64,000 nt of DNA from an uncultured Sutterella sp. (GCA_905213905.1 CAJMKD010000007.1:4388-68387), one strand, 5' to 3'. Counted from the first letter of the stretch, positions 6,675 through 58,719 are shown. Notes: generated by a model not told the origin, from the sequence alone. A program made the numbers and translations.

Positions 6675-6814
6675 CAAAGGTTGATCGGCGGCTGAGGCTA
6701 ATACCTTCGACTGAAGTGCCAAGCGTTCAGCGCGCCCCTCCAGCACAACAGGAGGCTCGGTCCTGCGCTCTCGGGCGCGGTTGAAGCGGCCTCAACCAAG
6801 GAACAGCTATCGGC

Positions 6815-7582
6815 ATGGCACAAATTCACCCGAGCGCGGTCGTCGACCCGCATGCTGAACTTGCCGACGACGTCGTCGTCGGTCCCTTCTGCCTCATCGG
6901 CCCCCGGGTTCGAATCGGCGCAGGCACGGTTCTGAGGAGCCACGTCGTCGTCGACGGCACCACGGAGATCGGCTGTCGAAACCTCGTTTACGCGGGCGCG
7001 AGCATCGGCTGCGCGCCGCAGGACAAGAAATACGCCGGCGAAGACACGCGCCTTGTCGTGGGCGACGACAACGTCATCCGCGAAAACTGCACGCTTTCGA
7101 TCGGCACCGTGCAGGACCACGGCATTACGACTGTCGGAAGCCGCAATCTCTTGATGGCCAACGCGCACGTCGCGCACGACTGCGTGGTTGGCAACGACAC
7201 CATCCTGGCCAACAACGTGGCCCTGGGCGGCCATGTTCACGTCGATGATCACGCCATCATCGGCGGCCAGACTGGTGTTCATCAGTTCGTCAGGATTGGC
7301 GCTTCGGGCGTGCTGCAGGACGTGCCGCCCTACCTCATCTGCCATCTGAATCCCTGCACGCCCGCTGGCCTCAACATTGTGGGGCTTCGCCGCGCGGGCT
7401 TCACGGACGAGCAGGTGAGGGCGCTTCGCCGCGCCTACGGGGCTTTCTACCGTGAGAATCTCACAGCGAAGGCCGCGTGCGAGAAGATCGAAGCGATGCA
7501 GGCGGAATTCCCGGGCGCCGCGAATGAGCTCGCGCGCTTTGTCGAATTCATCCGCGCCTCGACCCGCGGCGTCATCCGCTGA
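6815..7582 (+). CDS. lpxA: Acyl-ACP--UDP-N-acetylglucosamine O-acyltransferase
   Basis: 255 aa; hexapeptide-repeat beta-helix (MAQIHPSAVVDPHAELADDVVVGPFCLIGPRVRIGAGTVL) and LpxA-specific C-terminal helical domain. Confidence 0.92.
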   Translation: MAQIHPSAVVDPHAELADDVVVGPFCLIGPRVRIGAGTVLRSHVVVDGTTEIGCRNLVYAGASIGCAPQDKKYAGEDTRLVVGDDNVIRENCTLSIGTVQDHGITTVGSRNLLMANAHVAHDCVVGNDTILANNVALGGHVHVDDHAIIGGQTGVHQFVRIGASGVLQDVPPYLICHLNPCTPAGLNIVGLRRAGFTDEQVRALRRAYGAFYRENLTAKAACEKIEAMQAEFPGAANELARFVEFIRASTRGVIR

Positions 7583-52708: not shown

Positions 52709-53245
52709 ATGATGAAAGCTAAGTTTCTCATTCCGTTTGCGATTTTCGTCGTGCTGGCCGGGTTCCTCTTCAAGGGGCTCTACCTCGATCCGCGCACGCT
52801 GCCCTCGGTTCTGATCAACAAGCCGCTGCCGGCCTTTGAAATGTCGACGGTCTTCGATCCGAACGTGAAGTTCAAGAGCGAAGACATGAAGGGCAAGGTC
52901 TGGATGCTCAATGTCTGGTCGAGCTGGTGCGTGCCCTGCAAGCAGGAGCATCCCTACCTTGTCAGCCTCAAGCGCGGCGGCCTCAAGACCCCGATCGTCG
53001 GGTTCCTTTACAAGGACCAGCTCAGCGCCGGCCGTCAGGTGCTCGAAGAGAGCGGCAATCCCTACGACCAGGTGATCTTTGAGGAAAAGAACAAGGTCGG
53101 CATCGATCTCGGCGTTACGGGTGTTCCTGAAACCTTCATCATCGACAAGAAGGGCGTCATCCGCGGCAAGGTGAGCTATCCGATCCTTGACGATCTCTGG
53201 AACGACCAGGTGAAGCCCCTTCTCACGCAGCTGGAGGCCGAATAA
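52709..53245 (+). CDS. ccmG: Thiol:disulfide interchange protein DsbE/CcmG
   Basis: 178 aa; thioredoxin fold with WCVPC active site and GVxGxPETF motif. Confidence 0.88.
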   Translation: MMKAKFLIPFAIFVVLAGFLFKGLYLDPRTLPSVLINKPLPAFEMSTVFDPNVKFKSEDMKGKVWMLNVWSSWCVPCKQEHPYLVSLKRGGLKTPIVGFLYKDQLSAGRQVLEESGNPYDQVIFEEKNKVGIDLGVTGVPETFIIDKKGVIRGKVSYPILDDLWNDQVKPLLTQLEAE

Positions 53246-53736
53246 TGACCGCTTCTCGCATCAGCATGATCCTTGCGGGCGCCGCAGCGGCGCTCTCCAT
53301 CGCGCTTTCTCCCGCCGCGCTCGCCAAAGAGGCTGCGCCGACGGCTTTCGACCCCGTGGCGCACAAGCGCGTCGTCGAGGTTTCCGAGCAGCTTCGCTGC
53401 CTCGTCTGCCAGAACCAGTCGATTGCCGACTCGAACGCGGAGCTTGCCGTCGACCTGCGCAATCAGGTGATCGAGCAGGTGAAGGCCGGCAAGTCGAACG
53501 AAGAAATCGTCAACTACATGGTTGACCGCTACGGCGACTTCGTGCTCTACAACCCGCCCTTCAAGCTTTCGACCGCGATTCTCTGGCTCGGGCCGCTCGG
53601 CCTCTTCGTGGTCGGCCTTGGCGCTTTCTACATCAATCTGCGCCGCAGAAAGCGCATGGTGGCCGCAGCCGCCAAGCCGCTTTCCGCGCAGGACAAGGCG
53701 CTCGCCGACGAGCTCTTGAGCGGACGCAAGGAGTAA
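53245..53736 (+). CDS. ccmH: Cytochrome c-type biogenesis protein CcmH
   Basis: 163 aa; signal peptide, LRCLVCQNQS (CxxC) motif, C-terminal TM. Confidence 0.85.
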   Translation: MTASRISMILAGAAAALSIALSPAALAKEAAPTAFDPVAHKRVVEVSEQLRCLVCQNQSIADSNAELAVDLRNQVIEQVKAGKSNEEIVNYMVDRYGDFVLYNPPFKLSTAILWLGPLGLFVVGLGAFYINLRRRKRMVAAAAKPLSAQDKALADELLSGRKE

Positions 53737-53739
53737 ATC

Positions 53740-55080
53740 GTGACGACATTCATCATCATCTGCGTCGTCATGACGCTCATTGCGGTGCTCGCCGTGGTGC
53801 TGCCGCTCTGGTTCGGCGGCCGCGTCAATCCCGATGCCGACCGCCGTTCGCAGGTGCTTGCCATTTTGCGTCAGCAGGCTGCGGATCTCGAGGCAGAGCG
53901 GGCTGCCGGCCGCATTGATGAGGACGAGTTCGAAGAAAGCCGCATGGAGCTCGAACGGCGCGTTCTCGAAGAGACCCGCCAGGAAGATCAGGCGCGCAGC
54001 GGCAAGAGCACGCTCGTTGCCCGCATTCTCGCCGTGATCTTCCTCATCGTGATCCCGACCGCTTCTTCGCTCGCTTATCTCGCGCTTGGACGCTACACCG
54101 CCATGGATCCGCAGTTCATCGCCATGATGGAAGAGCAGAGCGCGCGCCAGCGCGGCCACTCCGGCATCGAAATGCAGCGGATGCTCGACAAGCTGCGCGC
54201 CGATCTTGAAAAGGATCCGATGAACGCCAACGGCTGGTTCATGCTTGCGCGCACCGCCGCGCAGATGAACCGCTTCGATGAATCCGTCGAAGCCTTCAAG
54301 AAGCTCAATGCGCTCGTGCCGAACAACGCCGACATCATAGCCGACATGGCCGACATGATGGCTGCGGCCAACGGCAAGGTGATTACGCCTGACATTGAGG
54401 CCCTTCTCAAGAAGGCGCTTCGCCTGGATCCGAATCAGTGGAAGGCGCTTGCGCTTCTCGCCATTCAGGCCTGGGACCGCCAGCAGTACGTGAATGCGGC
54501 GCTCTACTGGCAGAAGCTTCTTCAGGTTGTGCCGCCCGACTTCCCCGACCGCGATCAGATCGAATCGAACATCGCTGAAGCCAAGCGCCTCGGCGGCGTG
54601 AACGACTCGATTTCCGCCGTGTCGCCGAAGGCCGCCGATCAAAATGCTGCGGATGCGTCCGCAGCAGCAGAGGACGCGGCCGCAGCAGCGAAGACCGCGC
54701 CCGTGCCGACGGCTTCTCCCGCCGACATGAAGTCGGTGGCGGGCACCGTGATCATTTCCGACGAGCTCCACGCCAAGACGAAGCCCGACGACGTGGTCTT
54801 CATCTATGCGCGTCCTGCCGAAGGCAGCCGCATGCCCGTCGCCTTCATGAAGGTGACCGTGAAGGATCTTCCCTACAACTTCACGCTCGACAGCACCACC
54901 ACGATGGGTATGGGCATGACGCAGACGCTTGAGAACGTGAAGGCCGTCATCGTCGGCGCCCGCATCTCGAAGACCGGCAACTTCATGCCTCAGGCGGGCG
55001 ACCTTGAAGGCGAAATGCCCAATCCGGTTGAAGTGGGCGACCGCGGACTCGTTGTTCAAATTTCAACGGTCCACCAATAG
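53740..55080 (+). CDS. ccmI: Cytochrome c-type biogenesis protein CcmI (TPR-repeat)
   Basis: 446 aa; GTG start; N-terminal TMs then TPR-like repeats; last gene of the ccm operon. Confidence 0.75.
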   Translation: MTTFIIICVVMTLIAVLAVVLPLWFGGRVNPDADRRSQVLAILRQQAADLEAERAAGRIDEDEFEESRMELERRVLEETRQEDQARSGKSTLVARILAVIFLIVIPTASSLAYLALGRYTAMDPQFIAMMEEQSARQRGHSGIEMQRMLDKLRADLEKDPMNANGWFMLARTAAQMNRFDESVEAFKKLNALVPNNADIIADMADMMAAANGKVITPDIEALLKKALRLDPNQWKALALLAIQAWDRQQYVNAALYWQKLLQVVPPDFPDRDQIESNIAEAKRLGGVNDSISAVSPKAADQNAADASAAAEDAAAAAKTAPVPTASPADMKSVAGTVIISDELHAKTKPDDVVFIYARPAEGSRMPVAFMKVTVKDLPYNFTLDSTTTMGMGMTQTLENVKAVIVGARISKTGNFMPQAGDLEGEMPNPVEVGDRGLVVQISTVHQ

Positions 55081-55108
55081 CGGATTTTGCGCTGCTTTTT
55101 TGCGGCAA

Positions 55109-55145
55109 CCCGACCGATCTTCTTCGGAAGCGGTCGGGTTTTTTT
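55109..55145 (+). terminator. Rho-independent terminator of the ccm operon
   Basis: CCCGACCG-atcttcttcggaag-CGGTCGGG followed by T7. Confidence 0.7.
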
Positions 55146-55352
55146 ACGCGCTTTTGACGTCGACAGGCTGAAGCTGCGCCTCTTCAAGCAGGGTCTTCTA
55201 GGTAGTTTCGCCAATGCCGACTGACCGATGAGATATTTTGCGAAATTCCTCGTGCGAAAAAGCTGAACAGCGTGCTAGTTTGAACGAGACGAAGGACGCC
55301 ATCGCGCTTCAAGCGAATGGCCTTCGCAAGAAATACTCTTTTGGAGCAGCAG

Positions 55353-55514
55353 ATGTACAACCACCGCTACGAAGCGACGAACGACAAGGCCCTTCACCAG
55401 GGCATGCTCGCGCGCGTATTTGCTGCGGCTGCTGCCACCATCACTGCGTCTTCTTCCTCCTCTACATCCGTGCAGGCGACATCCTCTCGTCTGCACGCTA
55501 AGTTGCGATCATGA
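55353..55514 (+). CDS. Small ORF (53 aa) with Ala/Thr/Ser-rich tract; candidate leader peptide or small protein
   Basis: ATG 55353 preceded by GGAG at -8; MYNHRYEATNDKALHQGMLARVFAAAAATITASSSSSTSVQATSSRLHAKLRS; lies between two strong intrinsic terminators, upstream of the DUF3100/M20 cassette. Confidence 0.3.
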   Translation: MYNHRYEATNDKALHQGMLARVFAAAAATITASSSSSTSVQATSSRLHAKLRS

Positions 55515-55615
55515 AGACGCTCCACAGGCTGTCGGATGCTTGAATAGCAATAGGTCCCGCGAGGGACGGCGCCTCAAGCAGGAAGCGAACGGCAGCATCA
55601 GAAAGAACATCGAAC

Positions 55616-55649
55616 GGGAGAGCCTTCATGGTTCTCCCGTTTTTTTTTT
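55616..55649 (+). terminator. Strong intrinsic terminator / possible attenuator in the 5' leader of the DUF3100-M20 cassette
   Basis: GGGAGAgcc-ttcat-ggTCTCCC followed by T10, about 240 nt upstream of the DUF3100 start codon and about 100 nt after the small ORF stop. Confidence 0.6.
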
Positions 55650-55887
55650 CAACTTCAACAACCAAAAGCCTTTCCGCAGAATGCGCCTTCGCCTTGAGGC
55701 GGATTTCCGGGAAAGGAAAACGCAGAGAAGACTTCCGGTCCATGAAGAGATTTCGAAGCTTCGACGCACAAAGAGGAAAGAAGGCGCCGCACGAATGCCG
55801 CCCCTCGGACATTCGGAGCGTTGCCTTCACGAGGCGAGCGCCGGACCTCAAGTCCGGAGAAACAAAGACCAAACAGAAGGACAAGTC

Positions 55888-56718
55888 ATGGACCTCATCA
55901 AAAACTGGAAGATTCACGTGCTGGCGCTCATCATCGTCGCCATTGCGGAATTCATCGGCGTGCAGAAGTTCGGCCTCATCGTGCTGCTGCCGCTGCTCTA
56001 TTCGCTCGTGATCGGCGCAATTCTCAGCTTCCCGCGCTGGAATTTCATCAAGCCCGCCCAGATGGAGCGCGCCGGCCAGATGCTTTCGATCGGCATGCTG
56101 CTTCTCTTGACGAAGATCGGCCTCGACATCGGCCCCAACATCTCGATGATCTTCAATTCGGGACTGGCGCTCATCATGCAGGAATTCGGCCACTTCTTCG
56201 GCACGCTCGTCTTCGGCCTGCCGGTGGCGCTCCTCGTCAAGATGAAGCGTGAAGCGATTGGCGCCTGCTACTCGATCGACCGCGAAGCGAACGTGGCGAT
56301 CATTGCCGAGCGCTTCGGCCTTGACTCGCCCGAAGGACGCGGCGTCATGGGCATGTACGTCTGCGGCACGGTCTTCGGCGCGCTCTGGGTGTCGATTCTC
56401 GCGGGCATCATCGCACAGCTCAACATCTTCCATCCGCATTCGCTCGCCATGGGCGCAGGCATCGGCAGCGCCTCGATGATGGCCGCCGCCACGGGCTCGA
56501 TCATCGCAGCGCATCCGGAAGCGGCTGAAACGGTCCGCGCCTACGCCGCTGCGGCGAACCTCCTCACTTCGGTGCTCGGCGTCTACTTCGCGCTCTTTGT
56601 TTCGCTGCCGATCACGATCAAGGTTTATGAGTTCTTCACGAACGACAAGGGCGAAGCGCGCAAGCGCGACCCCCTCGCCGAAGAAGAGGCGCCTGCTGCC
56701 AACGCTCAGAAAGCCTGA
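55888..56718 (+). CDS. DUF3100-type polytopic membrane protein (putative transporter component)
   Basis: Start at MDLIKNWKIH (ATG 55888); 276 aa, about 8 TM helices; length and composition match the uncharacterised DUF3100 family that commonly neighbours amidohydrolases. The family assignment is from memory, not a search. Confidence 0.55.
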   Translation: MDLIKNWKIHVLALIIVAIAEFIGVQKFGLIVLLPLLYSLVIGAILSFPRWNFIKPAQMERAGQMLSIGMLLLLTKIGLDIGPNISMIFNSGLALIMQEFGHFFGTLVFGLPVALLVKMKREAIGACYSIDREANVAIIAERFGLDSPEGRGVMGMYVCGTVFGALWVSILAGIIAQLNIFHPHSLAMGAGIGSASMMAAATGSIIAAHPEAAETVRAYAAAANLLTSVLGVYFALFVSLPITIKVYEFFTNDKGEARKRDPLAEEEAPAANAQKA

Positions 56719-56776
56719 GCGGCCAAGCTGAAAAAGAACGCATTGAACGACTATTGAACGCGAAGGAACAAACATC

Positions 56777-57241
56777 ATGGCTCGCATTCTCAACAAGATG
56801 TACGACGTGCTCTTCATCCTGCTCGTCACGGGCTTTCTCGTCTGGATCGCCAACATTGAAGCTGGGTCGACCGCTTTTTCGAAGAGCGCAATCGGCATCA
56901 TTCTGATGGTCGTCATCACGGCCGTGGGCGTCCTCATTTCGATGCTGCCGGGCTTCAAGCGCCTGCCGATGGTCTTCTGGGTGTCGACCTGCGCCGTCAT
57001 CGTGTCGCTGCCGGCTTTCCCGCTTTCGGCAGATATTCTGAGCTACACGAAGGAAGTGGGCTTCCTGCCGATCACGACCCCGATTCTTGCTTATGCAGGC
57101 CTCTCGCTCGGCAAGGACATGGAAGGCTTCAAGCATCTCTCGTGGCGCATCGTCCCCGTGGCGCTCGCCGTGGCGGCTGGCAGCTTCATCTGCGCAACGG
57201 CGCTCGCTGAAGTGATGCTCCACCTCGAAGGCATCTTCTGA
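56777..57241 (+). CDS. Small hypothetical membrane protein (154 aa, 4 TM)
   Basis: Between the DUF3100 gene and the M20 amidohydrolase, same strand, short gaps; likely a cassette component. Confidence 0.55.
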   Translation: MARILNKMYDVLFILLVTGFLVWIANIEAGSTAFSKSAIGIILMVVITAVGVLISMLPGFKRLPMVFWVSTCAVIVSLPAFPLSADILSYTKEVGFLPITTPILAYAGLSLGKDMEGFKHLSWRIVPVALAVAAGSFICATALAEVMLHLEGIF

Positions 57242-57323
57242 TAAGGCATAGACTTCAGCTTTATTGACCCTGTTATTGCGGCGCGCTCGCGCCGCTTCCC
57301 AAGAAAAGAAGGACTTGGCTCAA

Positions 57324-58652
57324 ATGCAGAAAATGGACAAGGCGGCGCTTAAGGCCCGCGTGTGCGAAATCATCCGCGAACGCAATGCGGAAATCGTCGA
57401 ACTCGGTCACGCTATCTTTGCTGAACCCGAACTCGGCTTCAAGGAAGTGAAGACTGCCGAAAAGGTGAAGCAGGCCTTCGAGAAGCTCGGCATCGCCTAT
57501 GAAACGGGCTGGGGCATCACGGGCGTCAAGGCCCGCATGAAGGGGAAGGCCTCAAAGCGCACGGTTGCCCTTCTCGGCGAACTCGACGCCATCGTCTGCC
57601 GCACGCATCCCAACTGCGACCCTGTCACGGGCGCCGCACACTGCTGCGGGCACAACGTCCAGATTGCCAACGTCATTGCCGTCGCGCAGGCGCTCAAGGA
57701 AGCGGGCGCGATGGATTACCTCGGAGGCGACGTCGTGCTCTTTGCCGTGCCGGCCGAGGAGTACGTTGAAATCGACTACCGCAGCAAGCTTCGCGACGAG
57801 GGCAAGCTCCGCTTCCTCGGCGGCAAGCAGCAGATCATTGCTGAAGGCGGCTTCGACGACTGCGACATCGCCATGCAGATGCACGTGGCCGTCACCGACA
57901 ATCCCGAGGGCGACATGATGTACGCGGGCTCCTGCAACGGCTTCATCGGCAAGCTCATCGAATACCACGGCCGCGCCGCGCACGCGGCGGGCGCGCCGTC
58001 CGAAGGCATCAACGCGCTCAACGCGGCGATGATGGGCATCATGGGCGTCAATGCCATCCGCGAAACCTTCCGCGAGGAAGACTGCGTGCGCTTCCATCCG
58101 ATCATCAACGCGGGCGGCGACCTCGTGAACGTCATTCCCGACTTCGTGAAGATGGAAAGCTACTGCCGCGCGTCGACCGTGAAGGCGCTCTCGAAGTACA
58201 ACAACGCGATCAACCGCGCGCTCAAGGCGGGCGGCGACGCCATCGGCGCGCGCTGCGAAATCAAGGACCTGCCGGGCTATCTGCCGCTCGCGCCCGACGC
58301 GAAGCTCGCGGAAGTGCTCCGCGAAAACGCTGCCGCGACGATGGGCGAAAAGAACATCTTTTCGGGCATGCATTCGGCGGGCTCCACCGACATGGGCGAC
58401 GTCTCGCAGATCATGCCGACGGTTCACCCGTGGGTGGGCTGCGTCAAGGGGACGCTCCACGGCGCCGACTATGTCGTCGACAACGAAGAGGTTGCTTACG
58501 TGAAGTGCCCGCAGGCGCTCGCCGGCATGATCATCGATCTGCTCTGGGATGATGCTGCAAAAGCGGACGAAATCTGCCGCGAATTCAAGCCTGTCTTCAC
58601 GAAGGAAACGTACTGCCAGTTCCTGGAGGATCTGAGCGCAGGGAAGAATTAA
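57324..58652 (+). CDS. M20-family amidohydrolase / peptidase
   Basis: Start at MQKMDKAAL (ATG 57324); 442 aa; metal-binding HCCGHNVQIA and M20 catalytic/dimerisation architecture. Confidence 0.8.
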   Translation: MQKMDKAALKARVCEIIRERNAEIVELGHAIFAEPELGFKEVKTAEKVKQAFEKLGIAYETGWGITGVKARMKGKASKRTVALLGELDAIVCRTHPNCDPVTGAAHCCGHNVQIANVIAVAQALKEAGAMDYLGGDVVLFAVPAEEYVEIDYRSKLRDEGKLRFLGGKQQIIAEGGFDDCDIAMQMHVAVTDNPEGDMMYAGSCNGFIGKLIEYHGRAAHAAGAPSEGINALNAAMMGIMGVNAIRETFREEDCVRFHPIINAGGDLVNVIPDFVKMESYCRASTVKALSKYNNAINRALKAGGDAIGARCEIKDLPGYLPLAPDAKLAEVLRENAAATMGEKNIFSGMHSAGSTDMGDVSQIMPTVHPWVGCVKGTLHGADYVVDNEEVAYVKCPQALAGMIIDLLWDDAAKADEICREFKPVFTKETYCQFLEDLSAGKN

Positions 58653-58684
58653 CCGCGAAGGCTGAACGTCTTTGCCAAGCTCGA

Positions 58685-58719
58685 GCGGGTTGCGAAAGAG
58701 AAGCGCAGCCCGCTTTTTT
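58685..58719 (+). terminator. Rho-independent terminator after the M20 amidohydrolase
   Basis: GCGGGTTGCG-aaagagaa-GCGCAGCCCGC followed by T6. Confidence 0.55.

Follow-up and report, generated by a model that had tools for sequence, protein, structure and literature searches.

A candidate serine/threonine-codon transcription attenuator upstream of a DUF3100-M20 amidohydrolase cassette in Sutterella

Known leader-peptide attenuators sense Trp, His, Phe, Leu, Thr/Ile or Ile/Val/Leu and control biosynthesis. The classical examples (trpL, hisL, thrL) have in common a short translated leader, a cluster of codons, biased in their choice, for the amino acid that is sensed, a terminator before the structural genes, and an antiterminator strand positioned so that it would be masked by a ribosome at the leader stop codon. 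These traits recur in a stretch of 64,000 nucleotides (nt) from an uncultured Sutterella sp. (GCA_905213905.1, CAJMKD010000007.1:4388-68387; hereafter the window), within the 807-nt gap that separates ccmI from the start (55888) of a gene for a DUF3100 membrane protein. Analysis of the sequence suggests that this gap is probably a ribosome-mediated (trp/his/thr-type) transcription attenuator with Ser UCY and Thr ACA as its regulatory codons. Its nearest analogue is Escherichia coli thrL, in which two amino acids (Thr and Ile) are likewise combined. Unlike the classical attenuators, the Sutterella leader carries Ser together with Thr codons, a combination of which no described example was found in Rfam 15 or in a literature search; stands before a putative transporter and an amidohydrolase instead of a biosynthetic pathway; encodes a long peptide (53 amino acids, with about 25 codons before the Ser/Thr tract); and places its proposed antiterminator strand about 95 nt from the terminator. 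The same literature search found no attenuator with Ser codons, and the leader resembles none of the Rfam leader families, either in sequence or by covariance model.

The window derives from a human-gut Sutterella whose DUF3100 protein is found in identical form in 329 metagenome blocks; the nearest species representative in GTDB is S. massiliensis (94% protein identity). All elements described in a first-pass annotation of this DNA were recovered at the positions given there, among them a gap of about 800 nt, a 53-codon open reading frame (ORF) led by a ribosome-binding site, and a strong terminator (Table 1). The translated ORF includes the Ser/Thr/Ala-rich part AAAAATITASSSSSTSVQATSS. The attenuator terminator starts 98 nt past the leader stop codon and ends about 238 nt short of the DUF3100 start; its hairpin (55612-55642) comprises 13 pairs around a GC core of 10 bp, and the terminator call counts 7 of the 13 pairs as GC. 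Because a strong intrinsic terminator closes the ccm operon, the leader is shielded from upstream transcription; the Rfam search and the terminator call register that ccm terminator only as a sub-threshold terminator-like or RybB-like hairpin. The extended -10-like motif ahead of the ORF is predicted to work as the promoter: it is unchanged in S. massiliensis, and 33 of 37 loci have the pattern TG[CT]TAnnnT at 53-119 nt 5' of the leader start, where 0.025 per 100 nt would be expected by chance. Between the ccm terminator and this motif, a partly conserved block (TTCTAGG.A.TTTC.CCAA.GC...CTGACCGA, 55190-55250), shared with S. massiliensis, may serve as an operator or UP-like element.

Table 1. 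Features of the leader, its flanks and the downstream cassette (coordinates in the window)
Feature	Coordinates	Strand	Details
ccmI end	55080	+	
ccm operon intrinsic terminator	55108..55145	+	8-bp GC stem + T7; from sequence reading
Extended -10-like promoter motif (candidate)	55273..55281	+	TGCTAGTTT; 80 nt 5' of leader ATG
Leader ORF	55353..55514	+	53 codons, MYNHRYEATNDKALHQGMLARVFAAAAATITASSSSSTSVQATSSRLHAKLRS; Shine-Dalgarno (SD) sequence GGAG 55343-55346
Ser/Thr tract (proposed regulatory codons)	55437..55487	+	core 55449-55469 = UCU UCU UCC UCC UCU ACA UCC
Region 1	55446..55453	+	GCGUCUUC; can pair with region 2 segment GAAGACGC
Stable 11-bp hairpin	55469..55497	+	within leader ORF end
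Region 2 (proposed antiterminator 5' strand)	55512..55523	+	UGAAGACGCUCC; covers leader stop UGA 55512-55514
Attenuator terminator (proposed)	55612..55649	+	5' arm 55612-55624, loop 55625-55629, 3' arm 55630-55642, U-run (T10) 55640-55649
DUF3100 polytopic membrane protein	55888..56718	+	276 amino acids; PF11299, E 7e-91, 304 bits vs cut-off 27
Small membrane protein	56777..57241	+	154 amino acids
M20-family amidohydrolase	57324..58652	+	442 amino acids; TIGR01891, 186 bits vs 153.75; PF01546 (Peptidase_M20) and PF07687 (M20_dimer) above cut-offs
Operon-closing intrinsic terminator	58684..58719	+	GAGCGGGTTGCG...CGCAGCCCGC + T6; from sequence reading

The leader was compared between the window and 40 Sutterellaceae loci (32 GTDB species representatives and 8 extra metagenome relatives). 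Searched by blastn against 86 loci, it aligns with S. massiliensis only; homology was therefore followed through the translated tract, defined as at least 9 Ser/Thr within 12 residues. Such a tract lies 225-445 nt 5' of DUF3100 in 32 of 39 close Sutterellaceae loci and in all 8 extra metagenome loci, and the leader is kept regardless of the upstream gene, ccmI being the neighbour in few loci only. The parts follow one another in a shared order: the extended -10-like motif, the SD sequence and ATG, about 25 non-conserved codons, and 10-18 Ser/Thr codons. In 36 of 37 loci an SD-preceded ATG (once GTG) opens the frame of the tract, and this frame survives insertions and deletions. The start codon and the tract are spaced by 21-31 codons, mostly 25, whose sequence differs between clades; conservation of the leader peptide between clades is confined to the Ser/Thr codons. 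About a dozen other equally dense tracts occur in the six frames of the window, all in alternative frames of coding regions; this corresponds to a chance rate of about 1 per 5 kb of double-stranded window sequence, or about 0.07 expected per 700-nt leader. Judged by these comparisons, the leader is a conserved unit and not a chance ORF. Neither the Negativicutes nor a second Sutterella/Duodenibacillus clade, which is more distant, has the tract, although the downstream cassette is present in both.

Variation within the tract follows the codons. Across 31 loci, the second position of the tract codons is nearly always C (entropy 0.6 bit), the first is U or A, and the third is the most variable (1.8 bit); Pro (CCN) and Ala codons are scarce. 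This 3-periodic variation points to selection on codon identity, since a C-rich RNA motif or a Rho utilization (rut) site would need no such pattern. Codon choice in the tracts departs from that of the window's genes, which served as the reference: UCY codons make up 80% of Ser codons in the tracts and 24% in the genes, UCG 4% and 40%, and AGC 2.6% and 28%, whereas ACA accounts for 45% of Thr codons in the tracts and 7% in the genes. Attenuator leaders are known to favour starvation-sensitive codons strongly (PMC1183508), and under serine limitation translation slows at UCN serine codons (PMC3862929). The latter was described for Bacillus subtilis sinR (eLife 2013, PMC3862929), which resembles the Sutterella leader in that UCN and not AGY serine codons are slowed when serine is scarce; it differs in that its codons are part of the coding sequence of a protein, the yield of which they affect, whereas here they lie in a dedicated leader with a terminator. 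The first-pass annotation had envisaged stalling on Ser, Thr and Ala codons. The Ser and Thr codons are indeed conserved; the Ala run is not conserved across loci, which rules out Ala codons as a component of the signal.

These patterns also bear on the alternative of a riboswitch or protein-binding RNA, in which the C/U-rich tract would be a structural or ligand element or a rut site and the ORF would be incidental. The tract is C-rich, G-poor and rut-like, the predicted fold of the leader is more stable than that of shuffled sequences (z = -3.4), and some clades that have no intrinsic terminator are C-rich after the ORF. Yet C-richness by itself calls for neither the codon periodicity nor the restriction of the first position to U or A with CCN almost absent; the SD sequence, ATG and frame are preserved despite insertions and deletions; and the sequence between a conserved motif at the leader ORF end (see below) and the terminator is not conserved. 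A search of the whole window at the Rfam gathering threshold matches no leader family (Thr_leader, His_leader, Trp_leader, Leu_leader or Phe_leader) and no riboswitch, and a search of 55050-55950 at E values up to 10 returns only sub-threshold terminator look-alikes (Xoo2, RybB). The riboswitch expression platform that the first-pass annotation offered as its second option is thus not supported, as there is no Rfam match and the conserved positions are codon-like, and we consider a riboswitch or protein-binding element quite improbable.

The attenuator terminator is conserved within the Sutterella sensu stricto clade (19 sequences in 9 groups), in which the base of the stem is constant (AACGGGAG...CUCCCGUU followed by the U-run) and the apical part is variable. 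The RNAalifold consensus of 18 sequences is a hairpin of 11 pairs; compensatory changes occur in 4 of these. Where the leader ORF ends, all 19 sequences share a conserved motif, GAAGAYGC or GGAUGC; the leader stop codon falls between -1 and +39 nt from the start of the motif, overlapping it in 11 sequences. In the window this site is region 2, of which 10 of 12 nucleotides pair with GGGAGAGCCUUCA (55616-55628) in the 5' arm and loop of the terminator. Co-evolution of the two was evaluated with a 24-nt window anchored on the motif, the pairing of which with the species' own terminator 5' arm was compared by permutation with its pairing with the arms of other species. Own-species pairing averages 15.0 kcal/mol and cross-species pairing 11.3 kcal/mol (permutation p=4e-5), and the signal persists when the variable apical part alone is considered (p=2e-5); it disappears when the 24-nt window is moved by -48 to +36 nt from the anchor (p 0.15-0.67). 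Pairing with the own arm beyond that with the arms of other species, at one offset only, identifies the motif as the putative antiterminator strand. An exchange between two loci illustrates this: UCGUGG:CACGA in L009 corresponds to UCGUAG:UACGA in L092, the motif having A in place of G and the terminator U in place of C, and the pair is informative because the changed terminator base sits in the loop, where the hairpin imposes no constraint. Similarly, in the window-like group of five species the loop CUUCA is constant although the 3' arm varies.

The terminator and its partner motif make it unlikely that the ORF and terminator form an independent small gene, encoding a Ser/Thr-rich micro-protein or a small RNA, with the operon expressed from a promoter of its own past the terminator. 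Such a gene would account for the promoter-like motif and the very strong terminator, for the variable spacer between terminator and DUF3100 (52-250 nt), and for the conserved blocks past the terminator that are common to the window and S. massiliensis; in clades that have no terminator, a TTGACAAT box resembling a -35 element could be read in the same sense. Conservation of the peptide is nevertheless limited to Ser/Thr codons, and to rare ones, and a stop-codon motif that co-evolves with the 5' arm would have no purpose at a constitutive terminator. Moreover, the stretch from the terminator to DUF3100 yielded no sigma-70-like promoter, and no suitably spaced -10 element follows the TTGACAAT box. 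The sequence 3' of the attenuator terminator (55735-55830) contains the blocks CGCAGAGAAGACTTCCGGTCCATG and GAAGCTTCGACGCACAA..AGGAAAGAAGGCG, which are near-identical in S. massiliensis and absent from the next-closest loci (L087-L089).

Taken as an attenuator, the leader would operate as follows. Transcription would start at the extended -10 promoter near 55273-55281, and the 53-codon leader peptide would be translated from 55353. When Ser- and Thr-tRNA are charged, the ribosome would reach the UGA at 55512 and mask region 2, so that the terminator (55612-55649) forms and transcription ends. When charging is poor, the ribosome would stall at the rare UCY and ACA codons (55449-55487) and cover region 1, leaving region 2 free to pair with the 5' arm and loop of the terminator (55616-55628); this pairing would block the hairpin and polymerase would enter the operon. 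If the leader is not translated, region 1 would pair with region 2 and termination would be favoured. A further element, the 11-bp hairpin near the end of the ORF, is near-invariant in the window-like group and has an analogous hairpin in every other group; RNA polymerase may pause there. The operon, in turn, would by analogy with other attenuators relieve a shortage of Ser or Thr, presumably through uptake and hydrolysis of an amide or peptide conjugate (for example N-acyl or peptidyl) that releases Ser or Thr.

Several observations weigh against this account. The motif that anchors the co-evolution analysis was picked after the alignments had been viewed, which is the main caveat, although a generic artefact is made less likely by the offset control. 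When the entire upstream region was searched for partners of the 5' arm, with no anchor, the best duplex was not above dinucleotide shuffles, and unanchored pairing of 5' arms does not distinguish own from other species (p=0.31 and 0.56); the antiterminator is therefore not claimed from thermodynamics alone. Region 2 also favours its own 3' arm over those of other species (p=0.0018), a weaker signal than that of the 5' arm, which probably stems from the partly palindromic apical stems. The distance from region 2 to the terminator in the window is beyond that of classical leaders, with hairpins in between. The pairing of regions 1 and 2 has no co-evolution signal (p=0.55), so that the support for it is thermodynamic, from minimum-free-energy folds in which the two form an 8-bp helix. 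In sister clades a recognisable intrinsic terminator was not found, and the only tie between the M20 enzyme and Ser or Thr is the leader itself. Even so, the preference of the first-pass annotation for leader-peptide attenuation gains support from an ORF, SD sequence, ATG and tract that recur in about 40 loci, from rare and periodic codons, from a terminator with compensatory changes in 18-19 sequences, and from a stop-codon motif that co-evolves with it.

The sister clades in question, among them those of S. wadsworthensis type (L018, L042, L043, L045) and Aphodousia type (L014-L040), retain the ORF with its promoter motif and tract, as well as a hairpin that encloses the stop codon. In place of the terminator their leaders have a C-rich stretch after the ORF and a conserved TTGACAAT / TTAACAATTTGA box about 190 nt 5' of DUF3100. 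The output mechanism is therefore not uniform across the family; in these clades it may be a different one, perhaps Rho-dependent, and the sensor ORF seems to be older than the output platform. The TTGACAAT box was considered as a -35 element and rejected, there being no -10 element at a spacing of 16-18 nt. For these terminator-less clades a better analogy may be provided by the proline-codon leaders mgtL and mgtP, by tnaC and by Rho-dependent attenuation, in which the speed of translation of a short ORF likewise sets downstream transcription; unlike those leaders, the clade of the window has a canonical intrinsic terminator.

In the cassette behind the leader, DUF3100 and the M20 amidohydrolase are assigned by clear Pfam and TIGR matches, as the first-pass annotation had proposed, and the gene order (DUF3100, small membrane protein, M20 amidohydrolase) is kept in essentially all of about 80 loci from Sutterellaceae, Pectinatus, Megasphaera and Veillonella. 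The window genes are clear members of the pairs formed by DUF3100 (PF11299) and M20D-type (TIGR01891) genes, with the order common to Sutterellaceae and Negativicutes; they differ from other such pairs in that the putative transporter is split in two and in that the Ser/Thr leader is confined to part of the Sutterellaceae. The small membrane protein lies 3' of DUF3100 in every locus. In Megasphaera (P0082, L044-L054) and some Veillonella the two are fused into a protein of about 435 amino acids, and in Sutterellaceae they are two genes; the 154-residue protein of the window aligns with residues 284-434 of the fused 435-residue DUF3100 protein of Megasphaera hominis (54% identity, E 9e-50), which indicates that the two genes of the window encode one membrane protein, split. 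An AlphaFold2 model of the fused protein (predicted local distance difference test, pLDDT, 67; predicted template-modelling score, pTM, 0.61) has no meaningful match among PDB structures by Foldseek (template-modelling score about 0.13), and because of this the label "transporter" comes from topology and gene context only. The M20 enzyme reaches no equivalog-level (substrate-specific) model; its closest solved relatives are HmrA, the Xaa-Arg dipeptidase PM20D2 and YxeP.

Topology, family membership and gene order thus suggest a transporter acting together with an amidohydrolase, and they make plausible the "uptake and deacylation" function put forward in the first-pass annotation. Regulation by Ser/Thr supply is suggested by the leader sequence, and a substrate that yields Ser or Thr is presumed by analogy. 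The adjacent genes also invite the idea that the ORF is a precursor peptide, RiPP-like (that is, resembling ribosomally synthesized and post-translationally modified peptides) or secreted, with a Ser/Thr-rich C-terminal "core" processed or exported by the membrane protein and the M20 peptidase beside it. This is highly improbable: the N-terminal part of the peptide differs between clades, no modification enzyme is present, and the cassette occurs without the ORF in the Negativicutes and in the second Sutterella clade, whereas the rare-codon bias and the antiterminator signal favour regulation. As a possible clue to the substrate, T-box and other riboswitches were sought 5' of the DUF3100 operons of Negativicutes, and none was found. 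A literature search retrieved no paper that mentions DUF3100, and a metagenome scan with the 15-mer TCCTCCTCTACRTCC for other operons gave unrelated environmental matches only, none of them near DUF3100.

The Negativicutes loci do contain Rfam matches, none of which is 5' of DUF3100 (L054 7933-8185; L073 819-917; L044 and L047, about 6750-6975); they comprise a T-box 3' of M20 in Megasphaera cerevisiae, a purine riboswitch in Veillonella caviae, and signal recognition particle RNA genes. Elsewhere in the window, the second M20 locus noted in the first-pass annotation (34041-36781) is confirmed by Pfam as an M20 peptidase (366 amino acids) with an MFS transporter (458 amino acids); no Ser/Thr leader tract lies upstream of it. 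On the minus strand, an ORF of 627 amino acids (53176-55059) runs antisense to ccmH and ccmI; it is taken to be a GC-rich shadow ORF and not a gene, because the plus strand has clear CcmH and CcmI matches.

Sutterellaceae and Negativicutes are reported to live mainly on amino acids. If the proposed mechanism is true, it would extend attenuation to a new signal (Ser/Thr) and to nutrient scavenging, and the predicted choice of starvation-sensitive UCY codons would be seen at work in a natural attenuator. Whether the window leader is the first of a family of Ser/Thr-sensing attenuators in Sutterellaceae, one that would label DUF3100 and M20 as a gut system for salvaging these two amino acids from amide or peptide conjugates and in which the output platform has been swapped between lineages while the sensor ORF was kept, we regard as evenly balanced. 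The leader nevertheless offers a first functional clue to the DUF3100-M20 cassettes that are widespread in gut Sutterellaceae and Negativicutes.

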